Assembly (NCBI GenBank): GCA_964016885.1
Contig: OZ024750.1
Span: forward strand, 50,220,001-50,284,000
Origin: Eledone cirrhosa
Taxonomy: Eukaryota
DNA length: 64,000 bases
Direction of reading: 5' to 3'
Part shown: positions 15,646 to 58,130 of the stretch, piece by piece
How positions within the stretch are numbered: the stretch's first letter is position 1
Layout of the letters: each line of letters starts with the position of its first letter
Notes under the pieces: model-generated
The model's database searches: none
What the model saw: the letters and a program-made list of their open reading frames with translations, nothing else
Told to the model about the DNA's origin: nothing
Translations under genes and position numbers: made by a program

Positions 15646-17520
15646 ATAATATAATTATGTTAAATTTCTAAAATTCAAATTTTATGAAGACAAATTTAAA
15701 GGATTTACAAAACCCGCGAAAGAAAGAAAATATAAATGTAATGTTCGATATCCCCACAAAGGTAATCTTTACCAAAAATTACTTATAATATTGACAACAA
15801 TTTCTATAGTATAATTTATGAGATATTTACAGTTATAACTATTAAGGAATTTATTGTTAAATAGTTAGAGTGCCTAAAGTATTAACAGGTCTTATAATTA
15901 AACTTAAAGGGGTCAGAGTTTTCAGCCATACATATATGTGTGCATTGATCATAATATACCAGGACTATAATTTATTATTTGTTCATATATTGTATTAAGT
16001 AAAGTATTATATAAGTTCTACCTTCCAGGGAAAACCAAACATTTATAATAATGTCATTTGAGTGTTTAAATTATTTATATAAATGTAACTACGATTATGT
16101 TATTACCCTAGATAAAAATGTTTGTACAAACTATATATAGATATACTAGGTATTAATGAAACGGTATACATTTAATTAAAAAAATAACGATTATAATCAT
16201 GGTTAGTAGTTTTACCTCCAGTTCAGTGGAGAAATAAACCAATATTTGTCAGCTATTATTGCTTGTTAACTATACATAAAAAGGCAAAAAAAAAAGCAAA
16301 CCGCCAATCCAACTTTCTGAGTCCCCAATAACCCTCTCAAAATGAGTAATATATATATATATATGTATAATATGTAAACGCATGAATGATCCATAGTTCA
16401 AATTAAAATCAGTACATTTACAGGTTAGATATCTAAATTATATATTTAAAACAAAGACAGAAAAATAAAGATCTGAATGAAAGTCAAAAATATCCAAAAT
16501 CTCTAGGGCATGCATATCTATCAAGTAAACAAGTTTTCAAAACAGTGTCATTCATTCAGACATTAATTCCATTATATATGATTAGAAGATAAAGCAATTA
16601 TTAAAGTTTTATAAGCCGTTATGACTTATATGTTCAACAGTTGATGATAGACGTCGAAAATCAGACTTGATTGCTTCCTGTTTTTTTCATGACTTTTTGT
16701 GAGGCTTGGAATGTAGATAAAGCTTTATGAAGGCAGTTTGAGAATAATTCACTTTTTTTGTTAAATAAGTTTTCATAATTATTAATTGTTAATAGAGTCT
16801 CCTTTGTACAGAGGCTGCATTTAATTGATATACTAGAGTTGACATAAACTCCACTATTACAAAACTTCGTCCAAAATATCGAGTATTTTAAATGTTTGTC
16901 TTTTGATGACCATATATGCTGTGATAAAGAAGTCGAATATTTCCTATTAGAATTCGAGAATGAGCATTTATGATTCACAAATCTTGCCTTAAATGTAGAA
17001 GAAGTTGCTCCTATGTGTTGTATGTGTTGTTATTTGTTTTTACTGTGCATTTATACATCAAATTTCTGTCCAAACAATTATTTTGCAGAGAGCAATCTGG
17101 TTTATTTCTACAATTACATTTTGATTTATTATTATTTATATTAACACTATTATTAATATCATTATGTTGATTTTGATTTTAAATCTTACTGTTTATTTTA
17201 GTGATGTTTTGGGCCATATTCATAGTTGTAGAATAAGATAATTTAGTGTATCTATTAAAAATGGAATGATATTTATGTTGACTAGGGAATGAGCTATCCA
17301 AAGCTTTAAATAATAGATTACCAATTGGTGTTCTTACTGAAGGGGGATGGGGCATACCATATAACTGATTTAGTTCTGGTTCTTTTCCCCGATTTATTCA
17401 CAGTATAGGTGTTTGAATTATAATTACTAGAATTTATAGAATTTCGTTTATATGTGCCATTATTTTTATCAGGATTAGAACTTGGACTATTATTGTTTAC
17501 ATATTCTACATTATTTTTAT

Positions 17521-17700
17521 TGGCAGTATCGGTAGAGGGTCGGACGCCATGCTTTCCAACATAGTTACGTCCCTTTACTATCTGAGTTCAAATCCCGCCG
17601 AGGTTGACTTTGCCTTTCATCCTTACGGGGTCGATAAAATAAAGTACCAGTAATGCACTGGGTAATTGCTGGCCTTGTGCCTAAAGTAGAAACAATTATT
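17521..17700 (+). mobile_element. Deu/Nin-domain SINE nested in the Penelope-like element
   Basis: Consensus-like SINE, slightly 5'-truncated. TSD ATTATTTTTAT. Confidence 0.92.
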
Positions 17701-18914
17701 TTTATAACCTGCCTTTTTTAGCGCATCATTGTAATATGATACATTTTCATCAAATATTGCTTTATTGGCAGATATTCAATAAATGCGTTTTTGCACTCTA
17801 TTTACAATTGCTTTTTTCACAGACTTAGGGTGATTGGAGTAATAACTAACATAATTTATGTTTTCATTGGGCTTATGGAAAGGGTAATAAAAACGAGTCT
17901 TTAAGTTAAACGTAACATCAAGGAAATTAACTATTTTGGTACCACTTTCTACTTCTAGTTTAAGGTCGTAAAGTTTAAAGAATTCAATTATATTTTTCTT
18001 TACTCTATTTAGTTCAATATTGTTGTGTTTGACAACCGTAAATAAATGATCGTCCCTATATAAACCACCGGTAATCTCCGGCAGTTTTCTATTTATCATA
18101 TTTAAGATGAATATCCCCAGAAGATCTGTGATTTGCGCTGAATTAGATGACCCCATGGTAATGTTAAAGTTTCTATTTCTATTTGAGCGGGTCCAATATT
18201 CATTGTCGAAGTTAATAAAAGTTCTTCTAGCAGTTAATATGATATCAATTTCATACGTAGTTAGATCAGTATGCTTGTAAGCCTATGATAGAGCCTTATT
18301 TAGTAGGTTGGGCGTTATGGAAGAATAATAGCTTGTTATGTCCATCTGGATGAATCTACGGTTTATATTATCATCTATATTCTTATACCATTCAATGACT
18401 TCGTTTGTATCCTTCTACAAGCTCAATTTAGACCTCAATTTCAGAGTAGTAGAATTCTATCAATAATATTTTTACTAATTACTCCAATATCCGATTTGGA
18501 TGGAGCAATCTTTTAGAGTTCTAAGGTATTGGTGACCTATATATGGGTTTTTCCTAAATTTAATTTTTTTAAGTATACCGAGGATTTCGGTTTCAAAATC
18601 CTCCAGGAGTTTGTTGTATGGAGAATTCTTTGTTGATTTAAATAAAGACTCGAAATGATTGTATATATATATATTTATAAACGTTTGTATTTGTAAAGCC
18701 AAAACAATGCAGGTATGGATATAGAATATAAATGAAAATGTAAAAGATATTGTTGACAATTAGTCTTTTACCTTAAATTTATTTAAATATCCTTAATTTT
18801 CGAGATAATATCTCTTCTTCGGATAGAAGTAAAGTTGTTAAACCAGCGTTCTACCATTTCCTGTCAGCATGACTTGGCAAGCTATTTAGAACGCTGGTTT
18901 AACAACTTTACTTC

Positions 18915-18949
18915 CCTCCGAAGAAGAGATATTATCTCGAAAATTAAGG
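18915..18949 (+). ncRNA. Minimal hammerhead ribozyme (inverted copy at about 18791-18825)
   Basis: cct-CCGAAGA-a gagat att atctc-GAAA-at-TA-agg. Confidence 0.6.
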
Positions 18950-19489
18950 ATATTTAAATAAATTTAAGGTAAAAGACTAATTGTCAACAATATCTTTTAA
19001 ATTTACATTTTTATTCTATGTCCATACTTGCATTGTTTTGGTTTTACAAATAAAAACGTTTATACCTCATTACACAATACTTCAAGTGAACTATAACTTC
19101 CTCCTATATATATATATATATATATATATAACTAGTGCGTGTATGTTTATATATATATATATATATATTATTATTATTATGTAATAAACAACATAAGGCA
19201 ATTATTCCATTTACCAGTGGTTTCTTAAAAGCAAAAGGTTTTGCTTTCAATCCTCAGAATGAAAAATCCTGGTTTGTTTATTGAATATGGATTCTAAAAA
19301 CAAAAATGCAATCTATATGAAAGTGAGGCTGGAAAAGGGAGAAGGAAAGGAAAAATAAAATAAAACTACACATGCAAACACACACAAAAAAACACAAAAG
19401 CATACTTACACACACATACATATATACATATATATAAATGTACGCATACACATATACACATATATATATAAAGCGTACACATACACACC

Positions 19490-22379: not shown

Positions 22380-22652
22380 GTAATCTCTGTCACATCTATT
22401 CCACTCTGTAAATACGAAGCTGTTGATGACAACATTAATATCCATGTATCTATATGATTGTTCATATGTCCAAACTTTGCTAGTCCTCCGAGGAAAGCAA
22501 ACGAACGTTTGGAAGAAACGATTGTCAGCAATAAAATGAGTTGAACATACTTTTGATTATTGTGTAATTTATACTCCTGCTCTGTAAATCATCTGATGTA
22601 TCTACATTGAGCTATTTTCTTACTGGTAATAAGGTAGTAATAAATTACTGAC
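22380..22652 (+). repeat. Solo diverged pLTR related to the intact Penelope-like element, with HHR-like motif
   Basis: CTGCTCTGTAAATCATCTGATGT..CATTGAGCTA..CTTACTGGTAATAAGGTAGTAATA matches 35330-35396. Motif CCGAGGA..caaacg aa cgtttg..GAAAC gatt GTC. Confidence 0.75.
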
Positions 22653-23267
22653 CTTTCCTGTTTATAGTTGTATATAGTGTGTATATAACTATAAATAATA
22701 TTATTATTATATGTATCTATCTATCTATCTATATATATATCTCTATATATATAATCATAGCATATATTATATTTATATATGTGTGAATATGGGTGGGTGT
22801 GGACGTGGATCTTAAATAAATATTACTTCGTTGATTTCTACATTTAAGACATGAAGAAGCTAGCCAAATACAACGAAAAACATCATGTTATCAACGACCA
22901 CTTTCTAACATATTGAGATACAATTACATATATATTATTATTAGGAACTCTTAAGTAGGATGAAGTCGAATAATCAGTCAACTCCCCTTGCTATCATCAA
23001 TGAATGCGTTGACTTATGGTCAATATTAGACAAAGACCACTCTGATAAATATATAAATATTTATCTATTAGCTATATTACAGAAACCTATATTTAGATAT
23101 AAAAATACACACAATATCGGACTGGAGAGCGGAAAGTATTTTTATTGTGCACTAGAATGCACGAATTCCCTCATGATTTGGTAAAGCAATGTTTTTTTTT
23201 TTTATTTCTCTATTAAAATGTCTTTTATTTATTCGTTTCTTCCTCTACTTCAGCGTATTTACATCCA

Positions 23268-24128: not shown

Positions 24129-24189
24129 TATATCTAATAAACAAATCATTATTGGCAGAATCGGTAGAGGGTCAGACGCCATGCTTTAC

Positions 24190-25530
24190 ACACATATACA
24201 CATATTACATTTCCTTCAAACGTGTTGCTCATTTTCTTTCCTAACAAACTTTCCTGAGTTCTAATGATATATTTGTAAAAAGATACTTATACATTTATTC
24301 CTTAATGTCATTTCTATATATGCTGCACACTTTATGGAACTATTTTCTAGAAATAAACTTTTAAAGCATTTTTAAAAAGTTTAATCACTTTCTCGTGCCA
24401 GTACCCGATATAAACTACAGGGTTTGTCTCATCCAAACCATGAATCTAATAAAATCCAAATTTCCCAGTTGATAGTTGATATACCTGCTAATCTTTGGAC
24501 TCACACCCATTCTGAACATCACACATTTAATGTAATTGTCGTCAGAGTTACGGCTCTTTATAGTTTGAGTTCAAATCCTGCCGAGGTTGACTTTGCCTTT
24601 CATCCTTACGGGGTCGATAAAATAAAGTACCAGTAATGTACTGGGTAATTGCTGGCCCTGTGCCTAAAATAGAAAGAATTATTAAAGGTTTTCATATTCC
24701 GTTATTTATCCTGTGTGTGTTTTTCAGTAGTAGCTCTCCTCAAGCTATAAATCTATTAATATTTCGAGACCTTCACAGCCTTCTCCGAAGAATAACAACT
24801 GTTTGAGTTAATAGCATGCTCTTCGGATCAATTTCATAGATGTGGTCAATGAAATACACAAGGCCAAGAATTTTGGAAGAGAGAGAAAGTGGATTAAATT
24901 GAAAGCAGTGTATTACTGGTACTTTATTTTATCGTCCCCGTAATGATGAAAGGCAGAGCTAACAACGGCTGGATGTGAACTCAGTACGTAAAGGGCCGTA
25001 ACTATATGCCGCAAAACATTTTATGCAACCAATAATTGTTTCTACTTTTGGCCAGCAATTATCTCAGTGTATTACTGGTACTTTATTTTATCGACCACGT
25101 AAGGATGAAAGGCAAAGTCAACCTCGGCAGGATTTGAACTCAAAACATAAAGAGCCGTAACTCTGACGACAATTACATTAAATGTTCGATATCCAGAATG
25201 GGTGTGAGTCCAAAGATTAGCAGGTATATCAACTATCAACTGGGAAATTTGTATTTTATTAGATTCATGATTTGGATGAGACAAACCCTGTAGTTTATAT
25301 CGGGTACTGACACGCGAAAGTGATTAAACTTTTTTTTAATGCTTTAAAAGTTTATTTCTAGAAAATAGTTCCATAAAATGTGCAGCATATATAGAAATGA
25401 CATTAAGGAATAAATGTATAAGTATCTTTTTTACAAATATATCATTAGAACTCAAGAAAGTTTGTTAGGAAAGAACATTTCTTGATGGAGCAACACGTTT
25501 GAAGGAAATGTAATGTGTGTATAAGTGTGT
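24190..25530. repeat. Inverted repeat with arms of about 460-490 bp, each containing a truncated SINE (24545-24682 +, 25031-25162 -); another SINE (24856-25025 -) lies in the spacer
   Basis: ORFs 24424..24636(+) and 25072..25284(-) give nearly identical translations. Confidence 0.9.
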
Positions 25531-25640
25531 GCTTGTCTGTATGAGTGTTTAATTTTAAAGAGTTACAGACAGGTGTGTATGTATATACTCAAACACACGC
25601 ACGCATTCACGCATGCATATACATATATATATATATATAT

Positions 25641-25826
25641 GAACAAGTAAGACCCCGACGGCTGAGCTCAAGCCGTTTCGACGGCTAATTCTGGACTAAG
25701 AATTAGCCGTCGAAACGGCTTGAGCTCAGCCGTCGGGGTCTTGTTCCTATTACCCACTCTACTACCCTAAGTATTGAGTACTTTGGTGCGTTATGGTCCA
25801 CCTGGTTCCTTACCACATTTCCTTCG

Positions 25827-27174: not shown

Positions 27175-28305
27175 TGCAGTTCTCTGGCTACAATCAGAGA
27201 GATAAAATCAGAGTGTATAGAGGAGCCAGAACCAAATGGGAAAAAATGGTAAATAATGACATAAATGGGACCTGCCCCTTGTATAGGAGCAAATTTTGGA
27301 ATAGAATAGAAAGAACTAGGAACAAGGCTAATAGAATAAACTCATGGTATGATAGCAATAAATACCAGAGTGTAATGTTCATCGATACAATCCCTAGAGG
27401 TGAATTAGCTTACAAATTTAGAAGCTAAATATAACTAAACATAAACTCAATATTAAGATAGTAGAAAGACCAGGTATCTCCGTAAAAACACTTATTAGCA
27501 AGACATACCCTTTTCAAAGACCCTCATGTATAGATAAGAAATGTATAACCTGTAAAATAAGCCCCCATATTAACTGTAAAACTAGAAATGTAGTGTATAG
27601 CATAAGATGTACTGAAGGACAATGTAGAGACAAAAATATAGTGTACATAGGTGAGACAGCTCGTAGTGTAGGGGAACGGATAAATGAACACTGGCGAGAC
27701 CTTCAAGATAATAAAGAATCATCTGTACTCTACCAATATGCTAAGATAGAACACAGGGGTAGATTAGAGAACATAGAAATAAAAATAGAATCTACACACA
27801 GAAAAGACGCAATGTTTAGACAAATTACAGAGGCAATAAACATAAAAGAATTACAACCAAACTTAAATAGAAAATATGAGTGGAACAGCAACATCACAAC
27901 TTACAATTAAGGACAAAATGAAAACACACACACACATAGAACAAACAACCAACCAGTAACATGTAAATAAACAAATAAATAAATGAACATAAACACACAC
28001 AGACACCCGGATGTGGCGTATGCGCAGACTGAGCACACAACACACACACAGAAACAAAATGGCGTAGGACAGAACAAAGGAGAGGCACAGAAACAAAGAA
28101 AGGAATGCCCAGTCACTGAAGAGGTCACATAGTGTGTGACGAAAGAACTATGACTATATATAAACAACTATCTGGTTGTGGAACCAACCAATCAACCAGA
28201 AATTTATAAGTTTGTAGATTTATTATAAATTTATTATAATAAATTGAAGCGAAAGCAACTGGTGCGTGTGTTTCTTATTGGCAACATGACCCTCCCAAAG
28301 TATAA
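27175..28305 (+). mobile_element. 3' fragment of a Penelope-like element (Cys-rich linker + GIY-YIG, 3' UTR, HHR)
   Basis: CIDKKCITC..NCKTRNVVYSIRC..C..YIGETARSVGERINEH..EAINI..PNLN (ORF 27593..27910). Confidence 0.88.
28111..28155 (+). ncRNA. Minimal type I hammerhead ribozyme
   Basis: agtca-CTGAAGA-g gtcaca tagtg tgtgac-GAAA-g aa c-TA-tgact. 5-bp stem I and 6-bp stem II. Confidence 0.85.
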
Positions 28306-30665: not shown

Positions 30666-30762
<97 letters not shown>

Positions 30763-30763
30763 T

Positions 30764-30836
<73 letters not shown>

Positions 30837-31037
30837 TTAGTTATACTATTTATGGTTATGTAAACACAAAACCTTAAGCAGTTGTAAGTATTTTACACAC
30901 ACCCTAAATAGTGGTAGGCAGTAATGTATTACTACCTTATTACCAGTAAGTTAAGTAGCTCAATGTAAAAACATCAGATGATTTACAGAGCAGTTATATG
31001 AAATATAAGAATCAAAGAACTGTTCAAAACATTATTG

Positions 31038-31084
31038 TGCTTACAGCTGTTTCCTCCAAACCGAGGTTTGGATTCTTCGGAGCA
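31038..31084 (-). ncRNA. Minimal type I hammerhead ribozyme in pLTR of left copy
   Basis: Mirror of 39438..39484 with fully Watson-Crick stem I (tgct/agca). Confidence 0.8.
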
Positions 31085-32527
31085 ATTTATTAATGCATGG
31101 ACAGTTATATGACCTCCTTTTCAGCCGAGAGACATACCAATACATATTCAAACATTGATACATATTCAAACATTGTGGGTCAACATTCATTACAGAATTT
31201 AGAGTGGCAGTACACACTTCGAGATTACATTTATATTAATAGGTACAATCAAAAATCAAAGATATAGGTTAAAGTACAACATGAAGATAAGTGGTTATAT
31301 AGTGCAAATGTTATATGTGTGGCACGCATGTGCGTCTTGTTTATATAGTGTGGCAGAGAGATATGTGTGGTAGAGGCACTTAGGTAGGTAAATAAGAGTG
31401 TTAGGTTGGTAGATCTGGTGGCAAAGTCTTTATATGATTGATATAGTCTGTGTGTGGAGAAATATTATAAGCATTAAAGATAGTGCAAGCATTAAAAGTG
31501 TTATAAGTATTGGAGATGCACAGCGCAGGGATGTCAAGTAATTCATGTACTTCGGTATTTTCATGGTCAAGGGAGTGTATATTTCGATTATATGCCTTTC
31601 ACATAATCCACGACAATCCAGTTAGAGATCGTAGTCTGGTGTTCTTTAGTTCGATACAGGAGGTTGTTACGTTTCGAGAGACGCCATTGAATACCGGAAG
31701 TGTGTGTGTGGCTAAGGGGAGTTAATGCATGCGGGGAGGTAACTCTGGGGTTTCTATATCTAGCCATTAAAATATGTCTCAATATAGACCCTAAATTCTA
31801 TGGTGAGGTGCACCTTCCAAGAGAGACTTTTAAAGCATAAAGTGTACTAACTATAGAGTAGTTTAACTAAATTATGCTGAAGGTGATCATATTATTATTA
31901 GGGTGGATTAACCCATCTTAAGGTGCTACAAATGGAAATTATAGATGATGAGCGAGGATTCTAAATTAATGATCTCTATGGTTGTAGTCTGCTCATATGA
32001 CCAGGCGCGGTGATTGCAGGATTGCTTCAGGACCCAATGATCTCTGGTAAGATCTGGGTCATCGCTTGCTACATTGGATGTCGAAAGATAATCATCCCCA
32101 GGCAGGCCAAAGGTCAATCCGCAGTCCTCGCGACCCCTCTCTGACCGTCAGATCATCCATATACGTACAACCCGCACGGCAGTTGCATTGCATTCACTCA
32201 CTGCGTTCAGCAGCCTGGTCCTACTGGTCAACAGCGCTACTCGATTAAATCATTTTACATCTGTCTAAGGAAGGTGTTTCCTCTGCCCAACACCATCCAA
32301 CCGATCAATTCATGCTCAAATTACCCTTAGAGCGGTGTAGTGCCGTCCAGGTGGGTGGATGTTGTCACACCTGCCGTAGAGGTATAAATGGGTATTTTCC
32401 CTGCGAAGGGTTCCAGAGGGATGTCGTTGTTTGTGTTATAATGGATCAGCTAGTGTTGGGTATGTAGTATAGGGTGTGTCTCTGGTGTTTGATGCTAGAT
32501 GTGGTGTTAGGTTCCAGTCCGACATTG

Positions 32528-34984
32528 CTATATATGGGGCTTAAAGTTTTGGAAGGAATGTCTGAGGCGGTGCTGGCAAGTTGCAAACACCTCAGATTTT
32601 TTAAGTAGGTTACGGTTGGAGAAGATAATATTGTGTGTCTCTAGTATACAGAGGTTACAGAATTTATTAGGTGGTTTGTACGAGGTCGCGCTGCCTATCA
32701 CTTCCCATTTGAGTGTGTATGGTTTATTTTTAGATTTTAGATAGTGAATGTAGCTAGAAAGTGAGGTGGAGTTGGCTAGGCTGTGCTTTTTGAACGAGTG
32801 GATGTGCGAGTTATATCTAATTTTGAAGCAGTTAGAAGTGGAGCCTACATAGGTTTCTGAAGAGTTATTAGTCGTGACTGTGCATGAGTATATGACATCC
32901 TTGGTTAGGCATTTTTTATCTAAAGGGCAGGTTCTATTAGCTCTACAGTTACAATTATTCTGTGCGTTAGTCCGCTGGTTATAATGCAATGCGGAAGTCT
33001 GTGTGGTGGGTATAGGATTTTGGGTGTTCAGGTTGACAACCCTGGTGTTATTACTTATACTAGTGTTATTTCTATTGTTACTGCCGTTGCTATTGTTGCT
33101 TGCTACAGTGGTATTTAGAGGGTTTGCATCCCGTTGCGATTTTGTTTGTTGGAAGTAAGAACTAATTTTACTATTATTGCTGCTAGCTATGTGGTATGCT
33201 AAGTTAGGCGTCGTGGAGTATGAGATTTTAATGGTGTTTTTGTTTAAGAGGTTGTGGTACTTGTGTCCTAGAGGGAAGTTTTTATCTAGTAGTGAGAAGA
33301 AAGCCCTAGGTATGTTGGTGGAGACATTTAGGTTGAAAGGAGGGTTGAAAAATGTATTATTTCTTCTTCTATTTTTGCTTTTAGTGTTTGGTGTGTTGCT
33401 TCCTCCTAAGGCCTCACAGTAGTTTCCATGGTAATGGTTACTTCCGGTGGCACCCTCCGCTTTGGTGTACTTGTGGTTGCTATTCCTATTATTAGATTTC
33501 CTCATGGACATGTTGTGCGAGATGATGTTGTAGCTATGTGTTTTCTTAGGTAGGAACTCAATTTCTATATTATGGCCGGAGCTAGCTAATGCTTGATTGT
33601 AATATTGTGAGTTTTTGCTAAATATGTTTGCGTCATAGGACAGACTAGAGATTCTATTGGACACCCCCTTAGAGATAGAGTTTAATATTGATCTAGGGTG
33701 ATTAGACTTGGTATCTACGTAAATAAGTTTCTCATTAGGCTTATGGAAGGGTGTATATATTTTTGAGTCTAGGTATAGTGTGGCGTCTAGGAAGTTAACA
33801 TTTTTAGTGTTTTTGTCCATGGTGATACTAAGGTTAAAGTTTTTGAATGTCTTATGCAGTTGTTTTCTAGTTCTTTCTATATTAAATTTTTTATATTCTA
33901 TGAGTAGAAGTGCATCATCGCGGTACAAACCACCGTTGAGGTAAGGGAGGTCTTTATGGATTTCATTGAGGAGGTATAGGCCGACCAAATCAGTGACCTG
34001 CGCCGAGTCACTAGATCCCATGGTTATGTCGAAGTTGTTGTGCGTATCCTTGCGTGTCCATAGTTGGTCCTCGAAGGTGATTATGGTTTTACGGGCCGCA
34101 AGGATGACATCAACCTGGGCTCTAGTCAGGTCGCTATTGGTCATGGCCATGATAAGTGCCTTATTTAATAGGATAGGGGAAATAGAGGTGTAGTATGAAT
34201 TGATATCAAATTGAATAAATTTTTTGTTCTTATTATTCTTGATATCCTTAAACCATTCAATTACTTCACCCGTATTTCCCCATTGTTTAAGGTGTATCTT
34301 GTGTTTAATTTGTGGGATGATTTTATCCAAAATCTTCTTGCTGATAATACCAATGTCGGACCTGGAAGGGCAGATAAGTCTTATCGTGGGGTTGCTGATG
34401 AAGTTCTCCTTATGGTCCTTCAGAGAGAATCTAGGGGGGTTCGGAGTGAAAGGTTGTGTATGCCTCTGTAGTCCTAGTTTAGACACTATATTATAACCCT
34501 CTACATTAATATCTTCTAAGTTTTTCAAGGTGGTTTTTTTGTAGCTTTTATGTAGTTCATTATATATAAACTTTCTATAAGTAATATAATCTAGGCTGTA
34601 TATGTTATTAGTTTTATCTGCGTGTACAATAATTTTATTACTAGTTTTGAATCCACTAATAGAAGTGTTAAGTTTGTTTAAGAAGGTGTTGCTTCTAATA
34701 TGGTGCTTATTGTATTTAATGTTCTTAACTAGTTTAACTAGGTCATTTTCAAAGGAGTTAAGTAGAGTGTTATGAGGGGGGCTTTTAAAGGTTTTAAAGC
34801 CGAAGGAGTCAAAATTGTTAGTATTATTCAAGTTGTTAGATTTGTTTCTATCATAATGGAATGTCCTCCATCTCACTCTATTGATAAATGAATTTACACT
34901 GTTGATCAGCAATTTCTCATATGTATTCCTGGATGGTATTGGTATGTTCTTGGTTGACATGGGGAGTTGGTCTTTGATTAGCAT
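32528..34984 (-). CDS. Second intact Penelope-like ORF (818 aa), inverted copy
   Basis: Translation is identical to 35535..37994 except for one missing residue (LLKKSE vs LLNKKSE). Confidence 0.96.
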   Translation of the reverse strand: MLIKDQLPMSTKNIPIPSRNTYEKLLINSVNSFINRVRWRTFHYDRNKSNNLNNTNNFDSFGFKTFKSPPHNTLLNSFENDLVKLVKNIKYNKHHIRSNTFLNKLNTSISGFKTSNKIIVHADKTNNIYSLDYITYRKFIYNELHKSYKKTTLKNLEDINVEGYNIVSKLGLQRHTQPFTPNPPRFSLKDHKENFISNPTIRLICPSRSDIGIISKKILDKIIPQIKHKIHLKQWGNTGEVIEWFKDIKNNKNKKFIQFDINSYYTSISPILLNKALIMAMTNSDLTRAQVDVILAARKTIITFEDQLWTRKDTHNNFDITMGSSDSAQVTDLVGLYLLNEIHKDLPYLNGGLYRDDALLLIEYKKFNIERTRKQLHKTFKNFNLSITMDKNTKNVNFLDATLYLDSKIYTPFHKPNEKLIYVDTKSNHPRSILNSISKGVSNRISSLSYDANIFSKNSQYYNQALASSGHNIEIEFLPKKTHSYNIISHNMSMRKSNNRNSNHKYTKAEGATGSNHYHGNYCEALGGSNTPNTKSKNRRRNNTFFNPPFNLNVSTNIPRAFFSLLDKNFPLGHKYHNLLNKNTIKISYSTTPNLAYHIASSNNSKISSYFQQTKSQRDANPLNTTVASNNSNGSNNRNNTSISNNTRVVNLNTQNPIPTTQTSALHYNQRTNAQNNCNCRANRTCPLDKKCLTKDVIYSCTVTTNNSSETYVGSTSNCFKIRYNSHIHSFKKHSLANSTSLSSYIHYLKSKNKPYTLKWEVIGSATSYKPPNKFCNLCILETHNIIFSNRNLLKKSEVFATCQHRLRHSFQNFKPHI

Positions 34985-35534
34985 ATTGGCAATATTATAT
35001 GTCAGCTCAACGATATGGAGCAGTTAATAGTATTAGTTATACTATTTATGGTTATGTAAACACAAAACCTTAAGCAGTTGTAAGTATTTTACACACACCC
35101 TAAATAGTGGTAGGCAGTAATGTATTACTACCTTATTACCAGTAAGTTAAGTAGCTCAATGTAAAAACATCAGATGATTTACAGAGCAGTTATATGAAAT
35201 ATAAGAATCAAAGAACTGTTCAAAACATTATTGTGCTTACAGCTGTTTCCTCCAAACCTCGGTTTGGAGGAAACAGCTGTAAGCACAATAATGTTTTGAA
35301 CAGTTCTTTGATTCTTATATTTCATATAACTGCTCTGTAAATCATCTGATGTTTTTACATTGAGCTACTTAACTTACTGGTAATAAGGTAGTAATACATT
35401 ACTGCCTACCACTATTTAGGGTGTGTGTAAAATACTTACAACTGCTTAAGGTTTTGTGTTTACATAACCATAAATAGTATAACTAATACTATTAACTGCT
35501 CCATATCGTTGAGCTGACATATAATATTGCCAAT

Positions 35535-37994
35535 ATGCTAATCAAAGACCAACTCCCCATGTCAACCAAGAACATACCAATACCATCCAGGAATACATAT
35601 GAGAAATTGCTGATCAACAGTGTAAATTCATTTATCAATAGAGTGAGATGGAGGACATTCCATTATGATAGAAACAAATCTAACAACTTGAATAATACTA
35701 ACAATTTTGACTCCTTCGGCTTTAAAACCTTTAAAAGCCCCCCTCATAACACTCTACTTAACTCCTTTGAAAATGACCTAGTTAAACTAGTTAAGAACAT
35801 TAAATACAATAAGCACCATATTAGAAGCAACACCTTCTTAAACAAACTTAACACTTCTATTAGTGGATTCAAAACTAGTAATAAAATTATTGTACACGCA
35901 GATAAAACTAATAACATATACAGCCTAGATTATATTACTTATAGAAAGTTTATATATAATGAACTACATAAAAGCTACAAAAAAACCACCTTGAAAAACT
36001 TAGAAGATATTAATGTAGAGGGTTATAATATAGTGTCTAAACTAGGACTACAGAGGCATACACAACCTTTCACTCCGAACCCCCCTAGATTCTCTCTGAA
36101 GGACCATAAGGAGAACTTCATCAGCAACCCCACGATAAGACTTATCTGCCCTTCCAGGTCCGACATTGGTATTATCAGCAAGAAGATTTTGGATAAAATC
36201 ATCCCACAAATTAAACACAAGATACACCTTAAACAATGGGGAAATACGGGTGAAGTAATTGAATGGTTTAAGGATATCAAGAATAATAAGAACAAAAAAT
36301 TTATTCAATTTGATATCAATTCATACTACACCTCTATTTCCCCTATCCTATTAAATAAGGCACTTATCATGGCCATGACCAATAGCGACCTGACTAGAGC
36401 CCAGGTTGATGTCATCCTTGCGGCCCGTAAAACCATAATCACCTTCGAGGACCAACTATGGACACGCAAGGATACGCACAACAACTTCGACATAACCATG
36501 GGATCTAGTGACTCGGCGCAGGTCACTGATTTGGTCGGCCTATACCTCCTCAATGAAATCCATAAAGACCTCCCTTACCTCAACGGTGGTTTGTACCGCG
36601 ATGATGCACTTCTACTCATAGAATATAAAAAATTTAATATAGAAAGAACTAGAAAACAACTGCATAAGACATTCAAAAACTTTAACCTTAGTATCACCAT
36701 GGACAAAAACACTAAAAATGTTAACTTCCTAGACGCCACACTATACCTAGACTCAAAAATATATACACCCTTCCATAAGCCTAATGAGAAACTTATTTAC
36801 GTAGATACCAAGTCTAATCACCCTAGATCAATATTAAACTCTATCTCTAAGGGGGTGTCCAATAGAATCTCTAGTCTGTCCTATGACGCAAACATATTTA
36901 GCAAAAACTCACAATATTACAATCAAGCATTAGCTAGCTCCGGCCATAATATAGAAATTGAGTTCCTACCTAAGAAAACACATAGCTACAACATCATCTC
37001 GCACAACATGTCCATGAGGAAATCTAATAATAGGAATAGCAACCACAAGTACACCAAAGCGGAGGGTGCCACCGGAAGTAACCATTACCATGGAAACTAC
37101 TGTGAGGCCTTAGGAGGAAGCAACACACCAAACACTAAAAGCAAAAATAGAAGAAGAAATAATACATTTTTCAACCCTCCTTTCAACCTAAATGTCTCCA
37201 CCAACATACCTAGGGCTTTCTTCTCACTACTAGATAAAAACTTCCCTCTAGGACACAAGTACCACAACCTCTTAAACAAAAACACCATTAAAATCTCATA
37301 CTCCACGACGCCTAACTTAGCATACCACATAGCTAGCAGCAATAATAGTAAAATTAGTTCTTACTTCCAACAAACAAAATCGCAACGGGATGCAAACCCT
37401 CTAAATACCACTGTAGCAAGCAACAATAGCAACGGCAGTAACAATAGAAATAACACTAGTATAAGTAATAACACCAGGGTTGTCAACCTGAACACCCAAA
37501 ATCCTATACCCACCACACAGACTTCCGCATTGCATTATAACCAGCGGACTAACGCACAGAATAATTGTAACTGTAGAGCTAATAGAACCTGCCCTTTAGA
37601 TAAAAAATGCCTAACCAAGGATGTCATATACTCATGCACAGTCACGACTAATAACTCTTCAGAAACCTATGTAGGCTCCACTTCTAACTGCTTCAAAATT
37701 AGATATAACTCGCACATCCACTCGTTCAAAAAGCACAGCCTAGCCAACTCCACCTCACTTTCTAGCTACATTCACTATCTAAAATCTAAAAATAAACCAT
37801 ACACACTCAAATGGGAAGTGATAGGCAGCGCGACCTCGTACAAACCACCTAATAAATTCTGTAACCTCTGTATACTAGAGACACACAATATTATCTTCTC
37901 CAACCGTAACCTACTTAACAAAAAATCTGAGGTGTTTGCAACTTGCCAGCACCGCCTCAGACATTCCTTCCAAAACTTTAAGCCCCATATATAG
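35535..37994 (+). CDS. Intact Penelope-like element ORF: reverse transcriptase + C-terminal GIY-YIG endonuclease (819 aa), probably Naiad-like
   Basis: RT motifs FIQFDINSYYTSI, TMGSSDSAQVTDLVG, GGLYRDD and VNFLDATL. Asn-rich linker, then CNCx5CPx4C, VIY..YVGST..FKIRYNSH and C-terminal CxxCxxE..LN..SE..CQH. No CxxC between GIY and YIG. The clade call comes from recalled motif layout, not a phylogeny. Confidence 0.96.
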   Translation: MLIKDQLPMSTKNIPIPSRNTYEKLLINSVNSFINRVRWRTFHYDRNKSNNLNNTNNFDSFGFKTFKSPPHNTLLNSFENDLVKLVKNIKYNKHHIRSNTFLNKLNTSISGFKTSNKIIVHADKTNNIYSLDYITYRKFIYNELHKSYKKTTLKNLEDINVEGYNIVSKLGLQRHTQPFTPNPPRFSLKDHKENFISNPTIRLICPSRSDIGIISKKILDKIIPQIKHKIHLKQWGNTGEVIEWFKDIKNNKNKKFIQFDINSYYTSISPILLNKALIMAMTNSDLTRAQVDVILAARKTIITFEDQLWTRKDTHNNFDITMGSSDSAQVTDLVGLYLLNEIHKDLPYLNGGLYRDDALLLIEYKKFNIERTRKQLHKTFKNFNLSITMDKNTKNVNFLDATLYLDSKIYTPFHKPNEKLIYVDTKSNHPRSILNSISKGVSNRISSLSYDANIFSKNSQYYNQALASSGHNIEIEFLPKKTHSYNIISHNMSMRKSNNRNSNHKYTKAEGATGSNHYHGNYCEALGGSNTPNTKSKNRRRNNTFFNPPFNLNVSTNIPRAFFSLLDKNFPLGHKYHNLLNKNTIKISYSTTPNLAYHIASSNNSKISSYFQQTKSQRDANPLNTTVASNNSNGSNNRNNTSISNNTRVVNLNTQNPIPTTQTSALHYNQRTNAQNNCNCRANRTCPLDKKCLTKDVIYSCTVTTNNSSETYVGSTSNCFKIRYNSHIHSFKKHSLANSTSLSSYIHYLKSKNKPYTLKWEVIGSATSYKPPNKFCNLCILETHNIIFSNRNLLNKKSEVFATCQHRLRHSFQNFKPHI

Positions 37995-39437
37995 CAATGT
38001 CGGACTGGAACCTAACACCACATCTAGCATCAAACACCAGAGACACACCCTATACTACATACCCAACACTAGCTGATCCATTATAACACAAACAACGACA
38101 TCCCTCTGGAACCCTTCGCAGGGAAAATACCCATTTATACCTCTACGGCAGGTGTGACAACATCCACCCACCTGGACGGCACTACACCGCTCTAAGGGTA
38201 ATTTGAGCATGAATTGATCGGTTGGATGGTGTTGGGCAGAGGAAACACCTTCCTTAGACAGATGTAAAATGATTTAATCGAGTAGCGCTGTTGACCAGTA
38301 GGACCAGGCTGCTGAACGCAGTGAGTGAATGCAATGCAACTGCCGTGCGGGTTGTACGTATATGGATGATCTGACGGTCAGAGAGGGGTCGCGAGGACTG
38401 CGGATTGACCTTTGGCCTGCCTGGGGATGATTATCTTTCGACATCCAATGTAGCAAGCGATGACCCAGATCTTACCAGAGATCATTGGGTCCTGAAGCAA
38501 TCCTGCAATCACCGCGCCTGGTCATATGAGCAGACTACAACCATAGAGATCATTAATTTAGAATCCTCGCTCATCATCTATAATTTCCATTTGTAGCACC
38601 TTAAGATGGGTTAATCCACCCTAATAATAATATGATCACCTTCAGCATAATTTAGTTAAACTACTCTATAGTTAGTACACTTTATGCTTTAAAAGTCTCT
38701 CTTGGAAGGTGCACCTCACCATAGAATTTAGGGTCTATATTGAGACACATTTTAATGGCTAGATATAGAAACCCCAGAGTTACCTCCCCGCATGCATTAA
38801 CTCCCCTTAGCCACACACACACTTCCGGTATTCAATGGCGTCTCTCGAAACGTAACAACCTCCTGTATCGAACTAAAGAACACCAGACTACGATCTCTAA
38901 CTGGATTGTCGTGGATTATGTGAAAGGCATATAATCGAAATATACACTCCCTTGACTATGAAAATACCGAAGTACATGAATTACTTGACATCCCTGCGCT
39001 GTGCATCTCCAATACTTATAACACTTTTAATGCTTGCACTATCTTTAATGCTTATAATATTTCTCCACACACAGACTATATCAATCATATAAAGACTTTG
39101 CCACCAGATCTACCAACCTAACACTCTTATTTACCTACCTAAGTGCCTCTACCACACATATCTCTCTGCCACACTATATAAACAAGACGCACATGCGTGC
39201 CACACATATAACATTTGCACTATATAACCACTTATCTTCATGTTGTACTTTAACCTATATCTTTGATTTTTGATTGTACCTATTAATATAAATGTAATCT
39301 CGAAGTGTGTACTGCCACTCTAAATTCTGTAATGAATGTTGACCCACAATGTTTGAATATGTATCAATGTTTGAATATGTATTGGTATGTCTCTCGGCTG
39401 AAAAGGAGGTCATATAACTGTCCATGCATTAATAAAT

Positions 39438-39484
39438 TGTTCCGAAGAATCCAAACCTCGGTTTGGAGGAAACAGCTGTAAGCA
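39438..39484 (+). ncRNA. Minimal type I hammerhead ribozyme in pLTR
   Basis: tgtt-CCGAAGA-a-TCCAAACC tc GGTTTGGA-g-GAAA-C agct G-TA-agca. Palindromic stem III ACAGCTGT, U4C core variant. Confidence 0.8.
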
Positions 39485-39515
39485 CAATAATGTTTTGAAC
39501 AGTTCTTTGATTCTT

Positions 39516-39564
<49 letters not shown>

Positions 39565-40829
39565 ATTTATATATATATATTTATATATATATATTTATAT
39601 ATTATATTATATTTATATATTATATTATATTTAGAGTTTAAACTCAAAGTCATTTACAATTAATCAGCTCAAAGAAAGAAGCATTTCCGAGCAGTGAAAT
39701 ACAAGTTAATATATATTAATATATGATAAACACATACGTGTTTGTATAGTAAGAGACAAAGTTAGCTAGAATGAAATAAACTAATTAAAATGAATACAAT
39801 TTGTCTGTCTCGATATAAGTCAATAAAGACAAGCTTATATTGGCAAAAGCCGTGATTCCTGGACAAATTTAAATTTCAAAATCCAAACCTGCTCCGTAGA
39901 TGAATTTGAACTTCGAAACCTAAATATGTTTCGCAACGATGGTATAAAAATTGAAATATAAAAAAATTGAAATATACAAAGTGAAATATTCAAATCGTCT
40001 GTGCTTATCAACAGGAATCCAGTAAAATTAGTACATTTCATCTCCAAAAATGTTGCAGCACTGATTCACACGTCGTATAATCAGCTATACTAGCCATCCC
40101 ATACTCCCGGTGCTAGACATAACAGCCGTTTATATGGGATTACAAATTAGCTCTACAGTTAAGGAGCAATTATATTATATTATATTTAGAGTTTAAACTC
40201 AAAGTCATTTACAATTAATCAGCTCAAAGAAAGAAGCATGTCCGAGTCATTGTGCGTTTCTTTTCTATCTGTGTTCACTAGTTTGTGTTTATGTGTGTTT
40301 GTTGTTATTGTACTTGTGTATATTTATTTATATTTACCTTAGGTCAGTATTGTGTGCTTGGGCATGGTTGTTGTTATTATTCTTATTCCATTCGTTTTTT
40401 CCATTCAACTTTGGTTTTCTTAGTTCTATTTCAGTTGCTTCTTTGATTTGTCTCCCTGTTGAGTCAGTTCTATATTTAGATATTATTTTAATTTCTGTGG
40501 TGTCTATATTACCATAATGTCTTTGTCTGGCGTGTTCTTATAGCACCGAACTGTCTTGTTGTCCTTGTAGTTTCCCCCAGTGTTGGTCCATTTTTCTCCT
40601 ATGCTTCGAGCTCGCTCACCTATGTATGTCGTTGTCATTTTTCTGCAAGTACCCTAAGTACATCTTAGGCTATAGACTACATTTCTAGTTCTACAATCTA
40701 TATGAGGATTCATTGTACATATAACACATTTCTTATTAGTACCGTGGGTTTCTTAAAGGTGTATCTCTTGCTAATGAGGGATGTCATGGTAATTCCTGGC
40801 TCTTCTACAAATTTAATCTTTTTATGTGG

Positions 40830-40899
<70 letters not shown>

Positions 40900-40904
40900 A
40901 TATA

Positions 40905-41760
40905 TGCAATGATAGTCTATGTGGCCTATGTCAATCCATAGACACCGGTCAATATATAAACACAAAGATTGGAAAAATATTCACAAATGCAAATATGAAC
41001 TGCAAAAGCAGAAATCTAATTTACTGCATTAAATGCCCGAATTGTGAAGAACTGTATGTCGGTCAAACTGGAAATGCACTATCGAAACGTGCACGGGTGC
41101 ACGGAGAGCAAATCAGAGACCCAAATGTATGTCAGATACCCCTGAGTAACCATCTAGTAACATGTGGTCAGAAAATATTTATAATATTTCCATTCTACAA
41201 ATTATACAGCCCAAGTGAAATCAAGAAAATAATTAAAGAAAATAATGTTATTGATAAATTCCATCCCAAGCTAAATGAACAATAATAATGCCTAGGGGTA
41301 TTACTCCTACTATGACTACGCCTACGACCATGTCGACTACCACCACTAACAACAACAATAATAATAATAAAAGTGATGTTGATGGTGATGATTACTGAAG
41401 ATATTTTATAAAAACCCTAGAACATGCTATTTTCATCATTTCTAAAAATAGCAAAACGATTGCTGCTTTGGATAGGGTCAAATAGAAGTCGTTAGACATG
41501 CTCAACCAGCTGTGATGCCTAAACCAATCCGCGTTAGTAATCCAGAGAAACTGCACACCGATTGGTCGAAATACAGTTTGCAAAACTTATCATTCTGTAG
41601 CCGCTATTTGCTGTATATAATGCACAAAATTTACCCATCTCATTACAGTTGAAAATTGCAAACTTGACTGTCACCACAGAATATGAACCTGAAGATTGAG
41701 AAATCATGAAAGTACTTGTTCAATTAACACTTAACATTTAATATTCTACCATACTATTGC
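40905..41760 (+). mobile_element. 3' fragment of a Neptune-type Penelope-like element
   Basis: CNDSLCGLC..NCKSRNLIYCIKCPNCEELYVGQTG..RARVH..H..E..PKLN, with an HHR downstream. Confidence 0.88.
41684..41722 (+). ncRNA. Minimal type I hammerhead ribozyme
   Basis: tgaac-CTGAAGA-t tga gaaa tca t-GAAA-gtac-TT-gttca. Palindromic AAGTACTT. The cleavage triplet would be CUU. Confidence 0.75.
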
Positions 41761-46100: not shown

Positions 46101-46139
<39 letters not shown>

Positions 46140-46140
<1 letters not shown>

Positions 46141-47705
46141 TTTGAGCATGGGTTGGTTGTTTACCGACACCTCTGTTTGCAGATTGGAGCACTCAACGAA
46201 GTACGCAGGTTGGTTTGTAACTCCGGAGTAATGTAAAATAAGTAAGTCAAACCTGTTAAATTTGGCTTCGTTTTTTTATAAATTATCTGCTATATATATC
46301 TCAGTGACAAATATTATTTGCTGTGACCTCATCAGGCAGTACGAATTAATGCAGAAAAAACAGGTAAACATGTTGTTGAAATGCGTTCCACTCAGTCAAT
46401 TCATCGATATGTCCAGCTCCTGGCTGTGTTGTTAGTCATCCGAGGAACTGGAATCATATGTGCTAGAACAAACGAATTTCAGCGTCAGAGGATACGGTCG
46501 TACCCCATTGGTCAGTTGTCATACCTCTCCCAGCCGAAAGTCTATAGAAATTGTTCAGAAACAAGTCAACCTGTTATAGTTGTTTTTATCAGAATGTTTA
46601 AGTCCAACTGACCTCCTTTACTGTGGTGGTACTGGTAGTGGTACTAAGAAGTCAGCCAGCAGGTCAACCTTAGTAGGCTGCGGCTATGATCGGAAGAATG
46701 TATGTGTAGACCGGCATCTATCCTGCCACCGCGTAGTGGGGGGAGGGGCAAACAAAAAATGCGTGTGTGTTACAACCAATAGGATAAAAAACACAAAAAA
46801 AATTAGAAAAATATAAAATGAAATAAAAAACCTATGTCAGAATCCAGAAATGTGCAGAATTACATTCTTATTTTAGCATAAAGTACATACGTGTAATTGT
46901 CCGTCAACGCATACCTTTGCGCGTGCACACGTATAAACACAGGCTCGAGTGCATTCACCTCTCTACGTCCACACAGTCCAAGAAAAGATGGGTGCATTTT
47001 AAAACAAATGAAGTAATAGTGGAGTAAACAATTAAAAAAAAAGTTATTTTTTTATTTTTTTATTTTTTTATTTTTTTATTTTTTAGTACTTTATGCTAAA
47101 ATAGGAATTGTAATTCTTTACACTTCTGGATTCTGAGACATGTTTTTTATTTCATTTTTTTTTAACGGTGGTAACACACGCGCAATTTTTGTTTGGCACC
47201 CCCATCACGTGAAGTGGTGGAAGGATAGATTCCAGTTTACACACATAAATTCTTCCGATTTATAGCAAGAACCTACTAAGGTTGACCTGCGGCTGACCTC
47301 TTAACACCACTACCACTACCACCACAGTAAAGGAGGTCAGCTGTACTTAAACATTCTGGTAAAAACAACTATAACAGGTTGACCTGTCTCTGAAGAATGT
47401 CTATAGACTTTCGGCTGGGGAGTGGTATGATAACTGACCAATGGGGTACGAGCGTATCCTCTGACGCTGAAATTCGTTTGTTCTAGCACATATGATTCCA
47501 GTTCCTCGGAGGTCTAACAACACAGTCAAGAGCTGGACATATCGATGAATTGACAGATTGGAACACATTTCAACAACATGTTTAACTGTTTTTTCTACAT
47601 TAATTCGTACAGCCTGATGAGGTCACAGCCAATAATAGCTGTCACTGAGATATATATAGCAGGGAATTTATAAAAAGCTAAGCCAAATTTAACATGTTTG
47701 ACTAC

Positions 47706-47712
<7 letters not shown>
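46140..47712. mobile_element. Inverted pair of non-coding HHR-bearing units (arms about 46240-46887 and 47082-47710); HHRs at 46287-46339(-) and 47612-47662(+)
   Basis: CTGATGA-ggtcacagc..gtcact-GAGA-tatata-TA-gcag in both arms. The arms are visibly diverged from each other. Confidence 0.8.
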
Positions 47713-47741
<29 letters not shown>

Positions 47742-47835
47742 ATAATAACAAATGTGAAGACTGAAATCCAAAGAGAGTTCGATAAGGATAAAATATATAT
47801 CAAATATATAAGAACCATAGAGCAAACATTTATTA

Positions 47836-47945
47836 AAATAACAGATTAAAGTTTAAGCAAAGATTCGCTGGTTTCACCCTTAACAGTATCTTCTGAAGAT
47901 CCAGTTAAGCAGCGATTCTTTGTTTAAACTTTAATCTGTTATTTT
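47836..47945. repeat. Short inverted duplication centred on a CTGAAGA hammerhead-core-like motif
   Basis: AAAATAACAGATTAAAGTTTAA.. / ..TTAAACTTTAATCTGTTATTTT, with axis ATCTTC-T-GAAGAT at 47894. Confidence 0.7.
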
Positions 47946-51800: not shown

Positions 51801-52248
51801 TCCTTTTCGCTCTTATTTCTATCTAACACTAATTATTTACTAAAACCTATCGAGTCTAATCTAACTCCTCTCTTGAGAGAGTACCCCTATATGTTGTTGA
51901 CAATGGCCCCCGTCAAGTGCTGCTTAACTAAAGTGCTAATCCGTCTACCGTAGGATTTGCATGTCGGTAACGACAAGTTCGGCTTCCAGTAGCCGGGTCC
52001 CTGTCTATGGGTTTTGTCCAGGTTGACTAAGCAGGTCACTAATTTGTGATCTGAATAGGTAACCACAGATAGTCCCTAAGTCAGGTGTGTGTATCGATCA
52101 TTGAATGCCGTTTGCGGACATTTTATTTAGTGTCTTGAAAATATTATATATATAGATATCAAGATGAATGGACCAGTTATTTTTTATCTAAAGACATTTA
52201 TCCTATGTTATCCCTCCCTTCCCCTCAATCTATTTTATTTCTCATTTT

Positions 52249-53762: not shown

Positions 53763-54045
53763 TATATATATTGGTAAACGGAATAGAAAATGCTGACAAA
53801 TTGTTCACAGTGAAAAATAGTTTAATTAGGAATAAGTGAGAATTAGTAATTGTATTGGAGCGTCCGTGATGTTTGCTCAGAGCAAACATCACGGACGCTC
53901 TATCGAAAAATGCGTAACCGGTAAAACTTAAAACCAAAACTGAATACTAACAAATACAATTACTAATTCTCACTTATTCCTAATTAAACTATTTTTCACT
54001 GTGAACAATTTGTCAGCATTTTCTATTCCGTTTACCAATATATAA
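53763..54045. repeat. Perfect inverted repeat (about 95-bp arms) enclosing a second 21-bp perfect hairpin
   Basis: Outer arms 53763-53857 / 53952-54045. Inner GAGCGTCCGTGATGTTTGCTC-A-GAGCAAACATCACGGACGCTC (53858-53900). A related fragment lies at 2532-2612. Confidence 0.9.
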
Positions 54046-54073
54046 TAACTTGTGTGTTACACCTCTATTCTTT

Positions 54074-54151
<78 letters not shown>

Positions 54152-54989: not shown

Positions 54990-55059
<70 letters not shown>

Positions 55060-55065
55060 CATTAT

Positions 55066-55715: not shown

Positions 55716-55765
<50 letters not shown>

Positions 55766-57280: not shown

Positions 57281-57346
<66 letters not shown>

Positions 57347-58127: not shown

Positions 58128-58130
<3 letters not shown>

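Follow-up and report, generated by a model that had tools for sequence, protein, structure and literature searches.

The 64,000-nt stretch of the Eledone cirrhosa genome analyzed here (contig OZ024750.1, positions 50,220,001 to 50,284,000; hereafter the window) contains, at 30831-39527, an inverted repeat in which two 4.27-kb arms lie head to head around an unpaired 2-nt center, TC (35259-35260). Each arm holds one copy of an element that is, judged by its sequence motifs, a Hydra-clade Penelope-like element (PLE). The element unit spans 4,199 bp and consists of a pseudo-long terminal repeat (pLTR), an open-reading frame (ORF) and a second pLTR, including a 1.45-kb 3′ region in which no second ORF longer than 80 aa was present; the left-arm copy of this region had no match elsewhere within the window. 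Both outer ends adjoin a (TA)n tract, and the flanks beyond the tracts are unrelated to each other and not mirrored. Coordinates of the features are collected in Table 1.

The arms were compared by global alignment of the reverse complement of 30780-35258 with 35261-39640. Exactly four differences were found in 4,267 aligned columns, where the original prediction had counted at least four: three C/T transitions (in element sense T31774/C38748, C31565/T38957 and C31082/T39440) and one 3-nt indel located within an A-run, with AAC at 37917-37919 of the right arm absent at 32602/32603 of the left. The predicted coordinates of these differences hold except for 31772, which should be 31774. Columns 1-2,656, counted from the axis, contain no difference at all. 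The right arm ends at 39527, equivalent to 30995 in the left arm, and the left arm continues for a further 164 bp, as predicted, so that the right arm is fully contained in the left. An exact copy of the extra 164 bp lies within the right arm's own 5′ pLTR, and all four pLTR copies of the locus are identical across their shared length. The earlier argument that a fold-back would have had no template for the longer left arm is therefore not supported, as the sequence is available in cis.

The axis falls at the loop of stem II of a hammerhead motif, and the central TC is the native loop in the sense of the right copy, in agreement with the original prediction and with the native copy at 39450-39467. 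This orientation would fix which strand was made first only where a palindromic source element can be discounted. Across the 4,267-nt arm, no other perfect stem reaches 8 bp with a loop no longer than 4 nt; because this is the only such site, the position of the axis is not due to chance. A putative type I hammerhead motif is present in each 3′ pLTR, with the core CCGAAGA, an 8-bp stem II and a palindromic helix III, ACAGCTGT, confirmed at 39472-39479 and at its mirror position. Minimal type I hammerheads are described in PMC4209133 as having the core CUGANGA...GAAA...UH, a short palindromic helix III and a highly conserved G10.1-C11.1 pair; the motif here has CCGAAGA in place of CUGANGA and is without the G10.1-C11.1 pair. 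Rfam at gathering thresholds returned 0 matches in the whole window, and the hammerhead call is based on motif scans and on comparison with published Hydra motifs. The minimum-energy structure of the monomer is not ribozyme-shaped, while the helix III duplex is estimated at -11.1 kcal/mol and the predicted minimum-energy dimer pairs through helix III. Hammerheads of this minimal type may act as dimers with low in vitro activity, as described in PMC4209133. Since the arms read through the predicted cut site to stem II, the RNA template is taken to have been uncut at its putative 5′ ribozyme, or re-ligated.

Table 1. Features of the inverted repeat at 30831-39527 and tails of the head-to-head pairs in the window
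Position	Strand	Feature	Basis
30682..30833	.	Left (TA)n target tract; shares 3 nt (TAT) of microhomology with the long end of the element; no target-site duplication readable	Tract sequence and alignment
30831..30994	-	164-bp left-arm tail between the short and long end sites; 100% identical to 35329-35492	Alignment
30831..31062	-	Left-arm 3′ pLTR, 232 bp, long form; 100% identical to 35261-35492
31038..31084	-	Left-arm type I hammerhead motif; C-G pair in stem I; predicted cut 31042	Motif scans
31083..32527	-	Left-arm 1.45-kb 3′ region; holds substitutions 31565 and 31774
32528..35023	-	Left ORF, 831 aa stop to stop; reverse transcriptase and C-terminal GIY-YIG-type domain; Asn787 lost via 3-nt deletion
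35027..35258	-	Left-arm 5′ pLTR, starting at the stem II loop
35251..35268	.	Axis; stem II of the native hammerhead, 8 bp, its loop TC (35259-35260) in the sense of the right copy
35261..35492	+	Right-arm 5′ pLTR; short site 35328, long site 35492; uncut 3′ half of hammerhead
35496..37994	+	Right ORF, 832 aa stop to stop, 811 aa from Met 35559
37995..39441	+	Right-arm 1.45-kb 3′ region; substitutions 38748, 38957 and 39440
39438..39484	+	Right-arm type I hammerhead motif; U-G wobble in stem I; predicted cut after 39480	Motif scans
39460..39527	+	Right-arm 3′ pLTR, short form, 68 bp; ends 47 nt past the predicted cut and shares 5 nt (ATATA) of microhomology with the tract
39524..39615	.	Right (TA)n and degenerate TA-rich target tract
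30831-39527		Main locus, tail 164 nt
11196-11950, 55058-55717, 60586-61672		Pairs with tails of 159-167 nt
46138-47712, 58907-59444		Pairs with tails of 96 nt
47740-47945		Pair with tail of ~95 nt
58128-58812		Pair with tail of 82 nt
25640-25822		Pair with tail of ~80 nt
18676-19104		Pair with tail of 40 nt
53765-54077		Pair with tail of ~33 nt

End sites and divergence of inverted pairs

An unbiased scan of the window for inverted repeats yielded 15 loci. Four of these (10778, 24188, 53002 and 59749) were left out of the tail count as unfitting or unclassifiable; each of the remaining 11 is a head-to-head pair in which a short end and a long end abut TA tracts, the extra tails ranging from ~33 to 167 nt. 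Equal ends were found in none of the 11 pairs, which under independent end choice has P ≤ 0.5^11 (~1 in 2,000), or 0.008 for the first seven loci. In three families, independent insertions end at one and the same short site and long site of the family, the short site showing microhomology of 2-3 nt. The families comprise 46138-47712 and 58907-59444, which are ~74% identical; the three loci 11196-11950, 55058-55717 and 60586-61672; and 25640-25822 with 61702-61799, the short site of which occurs again at 57283. Because three families reuse identical end sites, the short ends are programmed and are not random deletions. For the family at the main locus, a relative of 78% identity at 22.5-22.7 kb, which ends at about the same position, supports the long site.

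Several of the neighboring pairs bear on how the arms were made. At 61702-61799, a long-site piece meets a short-site piece and the two overlap only by a 3-nt microhomology, indicating that neither was copied from the other. The native loop at 60586-61672 follows the orientation of the long-end arm, whereas at the main locus it follows that of the short-end arm; with opposite loop donors, no fixed first strand fits both loci. The other arm at 60586-61672 has ~245 bp of internal sequence and a further pLTR that are absent from the loop donor, and in a three-copy comparison of which pLTR templated the inverted arm there, one site groups with the 3′ copy and one with the 5′ copy, so that the comparison does not discriminate. 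The axis of 58907-59444 is a loopless 6-bp palindrome, which would be easier for two ends to anneal across than for one end to fold.

The arms of the main locus have diverged by 0.9 events/kb, the lowest value for any long pair in the window. The other head-to-head pairs show 0, 0, 9, 24, 51, 61, 75, 75, 77 and 115 events/kb, the zeros being on 44- and 92-bp arms. If the octopus calibration given in PMC13282606 applies (Jukes-Cantor distance of 0.09 for 25 My), the three substitutions correspond to ~0.1 My (95% range 0.02-0.29). The indel removed Asn787 from the left arm, a residue present in 19 of 19 homologues (all hits of the homologue search with at least 95% coverage) and whose equivalent is among the residues implicated in GIY-YIG catalysis in PMC8557442. 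In the right arm, a stem I C-G pair has changed to U-G, and the outgroup copy at 22.5 kb carries C. Both changes look, by sequence comparison, new, unselected and damaging, with one in each arm. The four differences fit ordinary ageing and are read as errors of the reverse transcriptase (RT) or later mutations, not as marks of two source elements. Since the main locus lies at the young end of the ageing series, they give no evidence of two templates, as the original prediction had taken them to do. A-to-I editing of a hairpin transcript was considered as a source of the substitutions and rejected; only two of the three fit one strand, and clustering would be expected.

Further observations concern the individual pairs and their relatives. 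The loci 11196-11950, 55058-55717 and 60586-61672 form a non-autonomous, retrozyme-like family with a unit of ~592 bp and a hammerhead-like motif with a 10-nt palindromic helix III. Despite the nearly equal tail length (159-167 nt in this family, 164 nt at the main locus), no DNA similarity was found between its sequence and the main pLTR, and kinship of the two was rejected on that ground. The pairs at 46138-47712 and 58907-59444 belong to one hammerhead-bearing family with homologous end sites, the younger having the loopless axis, and the latter pair shares a (TA)n tract with the adjoining 58128-58812, which has a degenerate hammerhead and a 60-nt offset center. A short hammerhead-like family (25640-25822, 61702-61799, 57252-57283 and 4317-4343) includes a pair whose axis falls within the ribozyme-like motif, a non-overlapping pair and single short ends. 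The hammerhead-bearing pair at 18676-19104, with the same CCGAAGA core as the main locus, lies at the 5′ side of a decayed Hydra-type ORF (16703-18642, minus strand) that is ~48% identical to the main protein in the RT. At 53765-54077, the 92-bp arms are identical, a 96-nt spacer lies beside a second near-perfect 21-bp palindrome and no hammerhead was seen; a second member of this family, with the same short site, is present at 2540-2608.

Among the loci left out of the tail count, a short inverted piece at 10772-11070 (relative at 14355-14476) lies 5′ of a hammerhead-core motif between two (TA)n tracts. A 500-bp inverted pair that includes a dispersed repeat resembling a short interspersed element (24188-25530) and a 99-bp inverted pair resembling a miniature inverted-repeat transposable element (MITE; 53002-53309) are not tied to TA tracts. 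Single hammerhead-like motifs lie near TA tracts at 2366, 19200, 14926, 54305 and 62177, where an inverted partner was not found.

Proposed priming and joining of the arms

We favor, at a probability of about 0.65, the reading that the locus arose when a Hydra-clade PLE inserted once, and recently, into a (TA)n tract by twin priming, with two cDNAs joined via stem II. An endonuclease would cut both (TA)n strands, by analogy with the Poseidon PLE for which such cleavage was shown in vitro, and each target 3′ end would prime reverse transcription on an uncut pLTR-ORF-pLTR (or circular) RNA. Judging from the observed ends, the two start sites would lie 47 nt (short) and 211 nt (long) past the hammerhead cut, and the intervening 164 nt would become the tail. 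The cDNAs would then be joined where stem II makes their 3′ ends self-complementary, a step that would give the observed junction by either of two routes: direct annealing of the two cDNAs to each other at stem II, or fold-back of the right cDNA, which would copy itself for some distance and then capture the left cDNA. DNA energies computed at standard state (-4.8 kcal/mol for the stem II cDNA hairpin and -17.7 for the duplex) do not decide between the routes. Fill-in would complete the 8.7-kb head-to-head palindrome.

Two RNA molecules or two source elements, as suggested in the original prediction, are not needed; two start sites on one RNA give the same product. One RNA is slightly favored over two because it explains the presence of one short and one long site in each pair, and it would suffice if the trailing RT displaces the leading cDNA; PLE RTs are not known to carry RNase H. 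For a Poseidon PLE, PMC11167929 describes a protein that acts on both strands by cleavage and extension and initiates at two RNA sites, the genomic tail being the stretch between them, with uncut RNA as its main substrate, normal insertion by ribozyme catalytic mutants and a protein dimer predicted by modelling. We suggest tentatively, as a proposal open to considerable doubt, that one ribonucleoprotein positioned at two fixed start sites of a single RNA primes both ends of the (TA)n break, one per site.

Several points weigh against twin priming. No second copy backs the short site of the main family, and microhomology of 5 nt, as seen there, is reached at as few as 3 of 255 positions, so that a later microhomology deletion also fits, for the main locus alone. 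Most offset junctions (spacers 12-199 nt) belong to older pairs, with 51-115 events/kb, and young pairs mostly have tight axes; non-overlap in old pairs, possibly including 61702-61799, may reflect later central deletion. The pair at 53765-54077, with 0 differences in 92 positions and its 96-nt spacer, breaks this trend; a rule that old pairs have offset centers was perfect in the first seven loci (1 in 35) and was abandoned because of it. The identity of the 53765 and 47740 pairs as PLEs is uncertain, solo-pLTR collapse could mimic unequal arm content, and 10778-10841 looks like a true short fold-back of a single cDNA. The in vitro start sites described in PMC11167929 are without strand preference, and strict pairing of short with long is not predicted thereby; palindromic junctions are read in PMC3846280 as self-priming. 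In addition, all four arm differences are confined to the outer 38% of arm length (P 0.02-0.04, post hoc), which direct annealing of full cDNAs does not predict, and the difference-free inner 62% leans toward fold-back and capture, gene conversion or collapsed polishing.

Self-priming by a single cDNA would begin with the left cDNA at the long site, which folds at stem II and copies itself until the copy is cleaved or arrested at the short site and attached to the opposite target end, the TC loop coming from a source already palindromic at the same axis. The containment of the right arm in the left, the stability of the cDNA hairpin and the resemblance of the 10778 locus to a fold-back are all in keeping with such a route, which is proposed in PMC3846280, while the tail is ascribed to endonuclease resolution in PMC8557442. 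We nevertheless consider it unlikely, as it requires the palindromic source to account for the loop here, and at 60586-61672 and 11196-11950 the short-end arm has hundreds of bases missing from the long-end arm, so that solo-pLTR collapse would have had to occur twice on the same side. The tail also matches the interval between two RT start sites in vitro (PMC11167929). Two cDNAs remain the best reading over simple self-copying, as the original prediction had it, on the evidence of the neighboring pairs rather than for the reasons then given. That evidence would also suit two RNAs, possibly from distinct sources, bridged as a hammerhead dimer through helix III and copied in parallel, as had been suggested; the palindromic helix III, the predicted dimer pairing and the possible dimer action of such motifs (PMC4209133) agree with it. 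The axis, however, lies at stem II and not at helix III, other pairs join away from any ribozyme helix, and the same architecture occurs at 53765-54077, a pair with no hammerhead seen. Neither the four differences nor the pLTR copies, identical over their shared length, call for a second source, and free RNAs give no reason for strict short and long pairing. Catalytic mutants of one PLE inserted normally in vitro (PMC11167929), a result that does not address helix III pairing. A ribozyme-bridged pair of RNAs is accordingly regarded as improbable.

The right arm could also have lost 164 bp after insertion with equal ends, by a microhomology deletion from an internal ATATA to the (TA)n tract. 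The rarity of the 5-nt microhomology and the instability of microsatellite flanks speak for such a loss, which we judge quite improbable given that ten other pairs carry the same one-sided tail, that in three families the exact short site recurs with microhomology of no more than 2-3 nt and that the locus is young. Still less credit is given to a right cDNA that folded back, copied to its own start, jumped to the 5′ pLTR through 68 nt of homology and added 164 nt. The loop is in the right-copy sense and both the extra sequence and the homology are available in cis, but the extension must stop where an independent relative also ends, and no tails are possible by this means in pairs with a single pLTR per arm (46138, 55058, 58128 and 58907). 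An assembly or library artefact, in which a fold-back chimera was formed and the differences are polishing errors, had been discounted in the original prediction and is the explanation we find hardest to credit. Near-perfect long palindromes are known to trouble assembly (PMC8557442), the indel lies in an A-run, the differences cluster near the unique flanks as after collapsed polishing and individual differences could be consensus errors. Against this, the flanks are unmirrored, the arm ends are unequal and typical of the family, and diverged neighbors (up to 115 events/kb) with the same architecture cannot be chimeras.

Protein, clade and other remnants

The right-arm protein carries RWR (residue 30), DKT (115), KDHKEN, YRDD (346), CxCx5C, VIY/YVG and CxxC-E-N-CxH motifs, with RWR standing where the homologue alignment has the consensus RWK. 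Its C-terminal domain is predicted to be of GIY-YIG type, with VIY689/YVG704 and conserved R715, H719, E774 and N787 matching the Hydra description; CNCRANRTC in the linker at 670, CNLC at 768 and CQH at 796 were located, and no CxxC lies between 689 and 704. A structure model had a pLDDT of 80, and the top three fold matches were telomerase RTs (E 2e-9 to 2e-8). Pfam returned 0 families in the main protein and, over 21 alignment members, only four unrelated hits, each in a single member; a PDB sequence search with the main protein gave only a weak match to a retron RT (E 0.019). The homologue search returned 36 proteins at 30-42% identity, the nearest named one being from Argonauta hians (39%), and these are too distant to reveal the variants of either arm in other copies. 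The homodimer prediction for residues 1-240 scored 0.00 with an uncertain fold and the alignment unused, and is evidence neither way. Asn-rich, low-confidence segments occur at residues 474-531 and 613-667 of the ORF (35559-37991; 22% N over residues 490-670), resembling the N-rich inserts described in PMC3846280.

A single ORF with a telomerase-related RT (YRDD and the telomerase fold matches) and direct and inverted pLTRs with an optional tail place the element among PLEs. The Hydra clade of PLEs with a C-terminal endonuclease, as described in PMC8557442, has (TA)n targets, hammerheads, DKT, no CCHH and CxCx5C; the element shares with it DKT in place of DKG, the RW(K/R) motif, the absence of CCHH, the CxCx5C linker, CxxC/CxH around the conserved E and N, insertion into (TA)n, a pLTR hammerhead motif resembling in layout the rows given for Hydra in File S2, and a 5′ inverted copy. 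Hydra elements are generally below 3 kb, a descriptive and not a diagnostic size, which the unit here exceeds owing to its 1.45-kb 3′ region. The CCHH inside GIY-YIG that characterizes Naiad, Neptune, Nematis and Penelope-Poseidon is absent, and the endonuclease-like domain is C-terminal, unlike the N-terminal endonuclease of Naiad. A Hydra family of Octopus bimaculoides, Hydra-1_Obim (PMC8557442 supplement), differs from the element here in N-terminus and hammerhead, as compared by eye only.

Other remnants were seen across the window. The right flank contains two decayed PLE remnants of GIY-YIG type (39616-40830, minus strand; 40900-41285, plus strand), in which CxxC lies between the motifs; they diverge from a (TA)n tract, and the former carries a 76-bp direct repeat (39616-39691 and 40171-40246). 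A Hydra-type C-terminal fragment (11995-13138), the 78%-identical pLTR relative of the main family (22440-22710) and a GIY-YIG fragment (27422-27910) are on the plus strand, and GC-rich decayed RT fragments of non-LTR type (50235-51812) are on the minus strand. A 200-N gap at 10452-10651 is probably a scaffolding gap.

Relation to known systems and significance

In LINE-1 twin priming, both target strands prime cDNAs that are joined head to head by microhomology, each piece covering a separate part of one RNA and the second site being random. The arms here differ in that they overlap almost entirely and both sites are fixed, with 61702-61799 representing the LINE-1-like, non-overlapping form. 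Closer in structure are the Adineta vaga Penelope elements Pen2a, Pen2 and Pen3a, described in PMC3846280 with palindromic head-to-head junctions and a tail on one inverted pLTR; they differ from the main locus in a tail of 31 bp and an inverted part made up mostly of a pLTR, and the authors propose self-priming on an antisense template, not two primed cDNAs. The Poseidon element of Anolis carolinensis, as described in PMC11167929, resembles the mechanism proposed here in two RT start sites spanning the tail, cleavage and extension of both strands, an AT-rich target and the use of uncut RNA. It belongs to a different clade with start sites inside the ORF, compared with putative sites mapping 46 and 210 nt upstream of the first ATG here, and non-homologous initiation is described for it, in contrast to the 2-5 nt of microhomology at the ends here.

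PLE tails of 30-40 bp, often at one end only, and an inverted copy at the 5′ end are described in PMC8557442, including a 5′-truncated inverted copy in the Hydra-clade Penelope-13_HM, in contrast to the full-length inverted copy with open ORF and 164-nt tail found here. The element is, by its motifs, a new long Hydra family, and its architecture of head-to-head PLEs, palindromic junctions and one-sided tails has already been published. New with respect to the published cases are the full length of both arms, each with an open ORF, tail lengths of 80-167 nt and the reading of the strict short-with-long rule as twin priming. No such reading of the rule was found in the open-access literature; older subscription Penelope papers were outside the search and priority is not claimed.

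The origin of PLE tandem and inverted structures is called undefined in PMC8557442, where an in vitro system is requested. The window joins the self-priming proposal of PMC3846280 with the two start sites and two-strand extension of PMC11167929, and the strict pairing of short with long ends across families, together with a young copy having an intact right ORF and known ends, provides a statistic for use across the genome and a substrate to decide between self-priming and twin priming. If twin priming on a single RNA is true, palindromes that pair a short with a long end would be the primary integration product of Hydra-type PLEs and their non-autonomous partners, both cDNAs here would have run the full 4.2 kb on one template, and the tail would be the spacing between two RT subunits, with offset centers partly due to later decay. 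PLE inverted repeats can be mistaken for MITEs or assembly errors. With 11 pairs in 64 kb, PLE activity is implied to seed the genome densely with long, tightly spaced palindromes, structures that are described as recombinogenic (PMC7999016).

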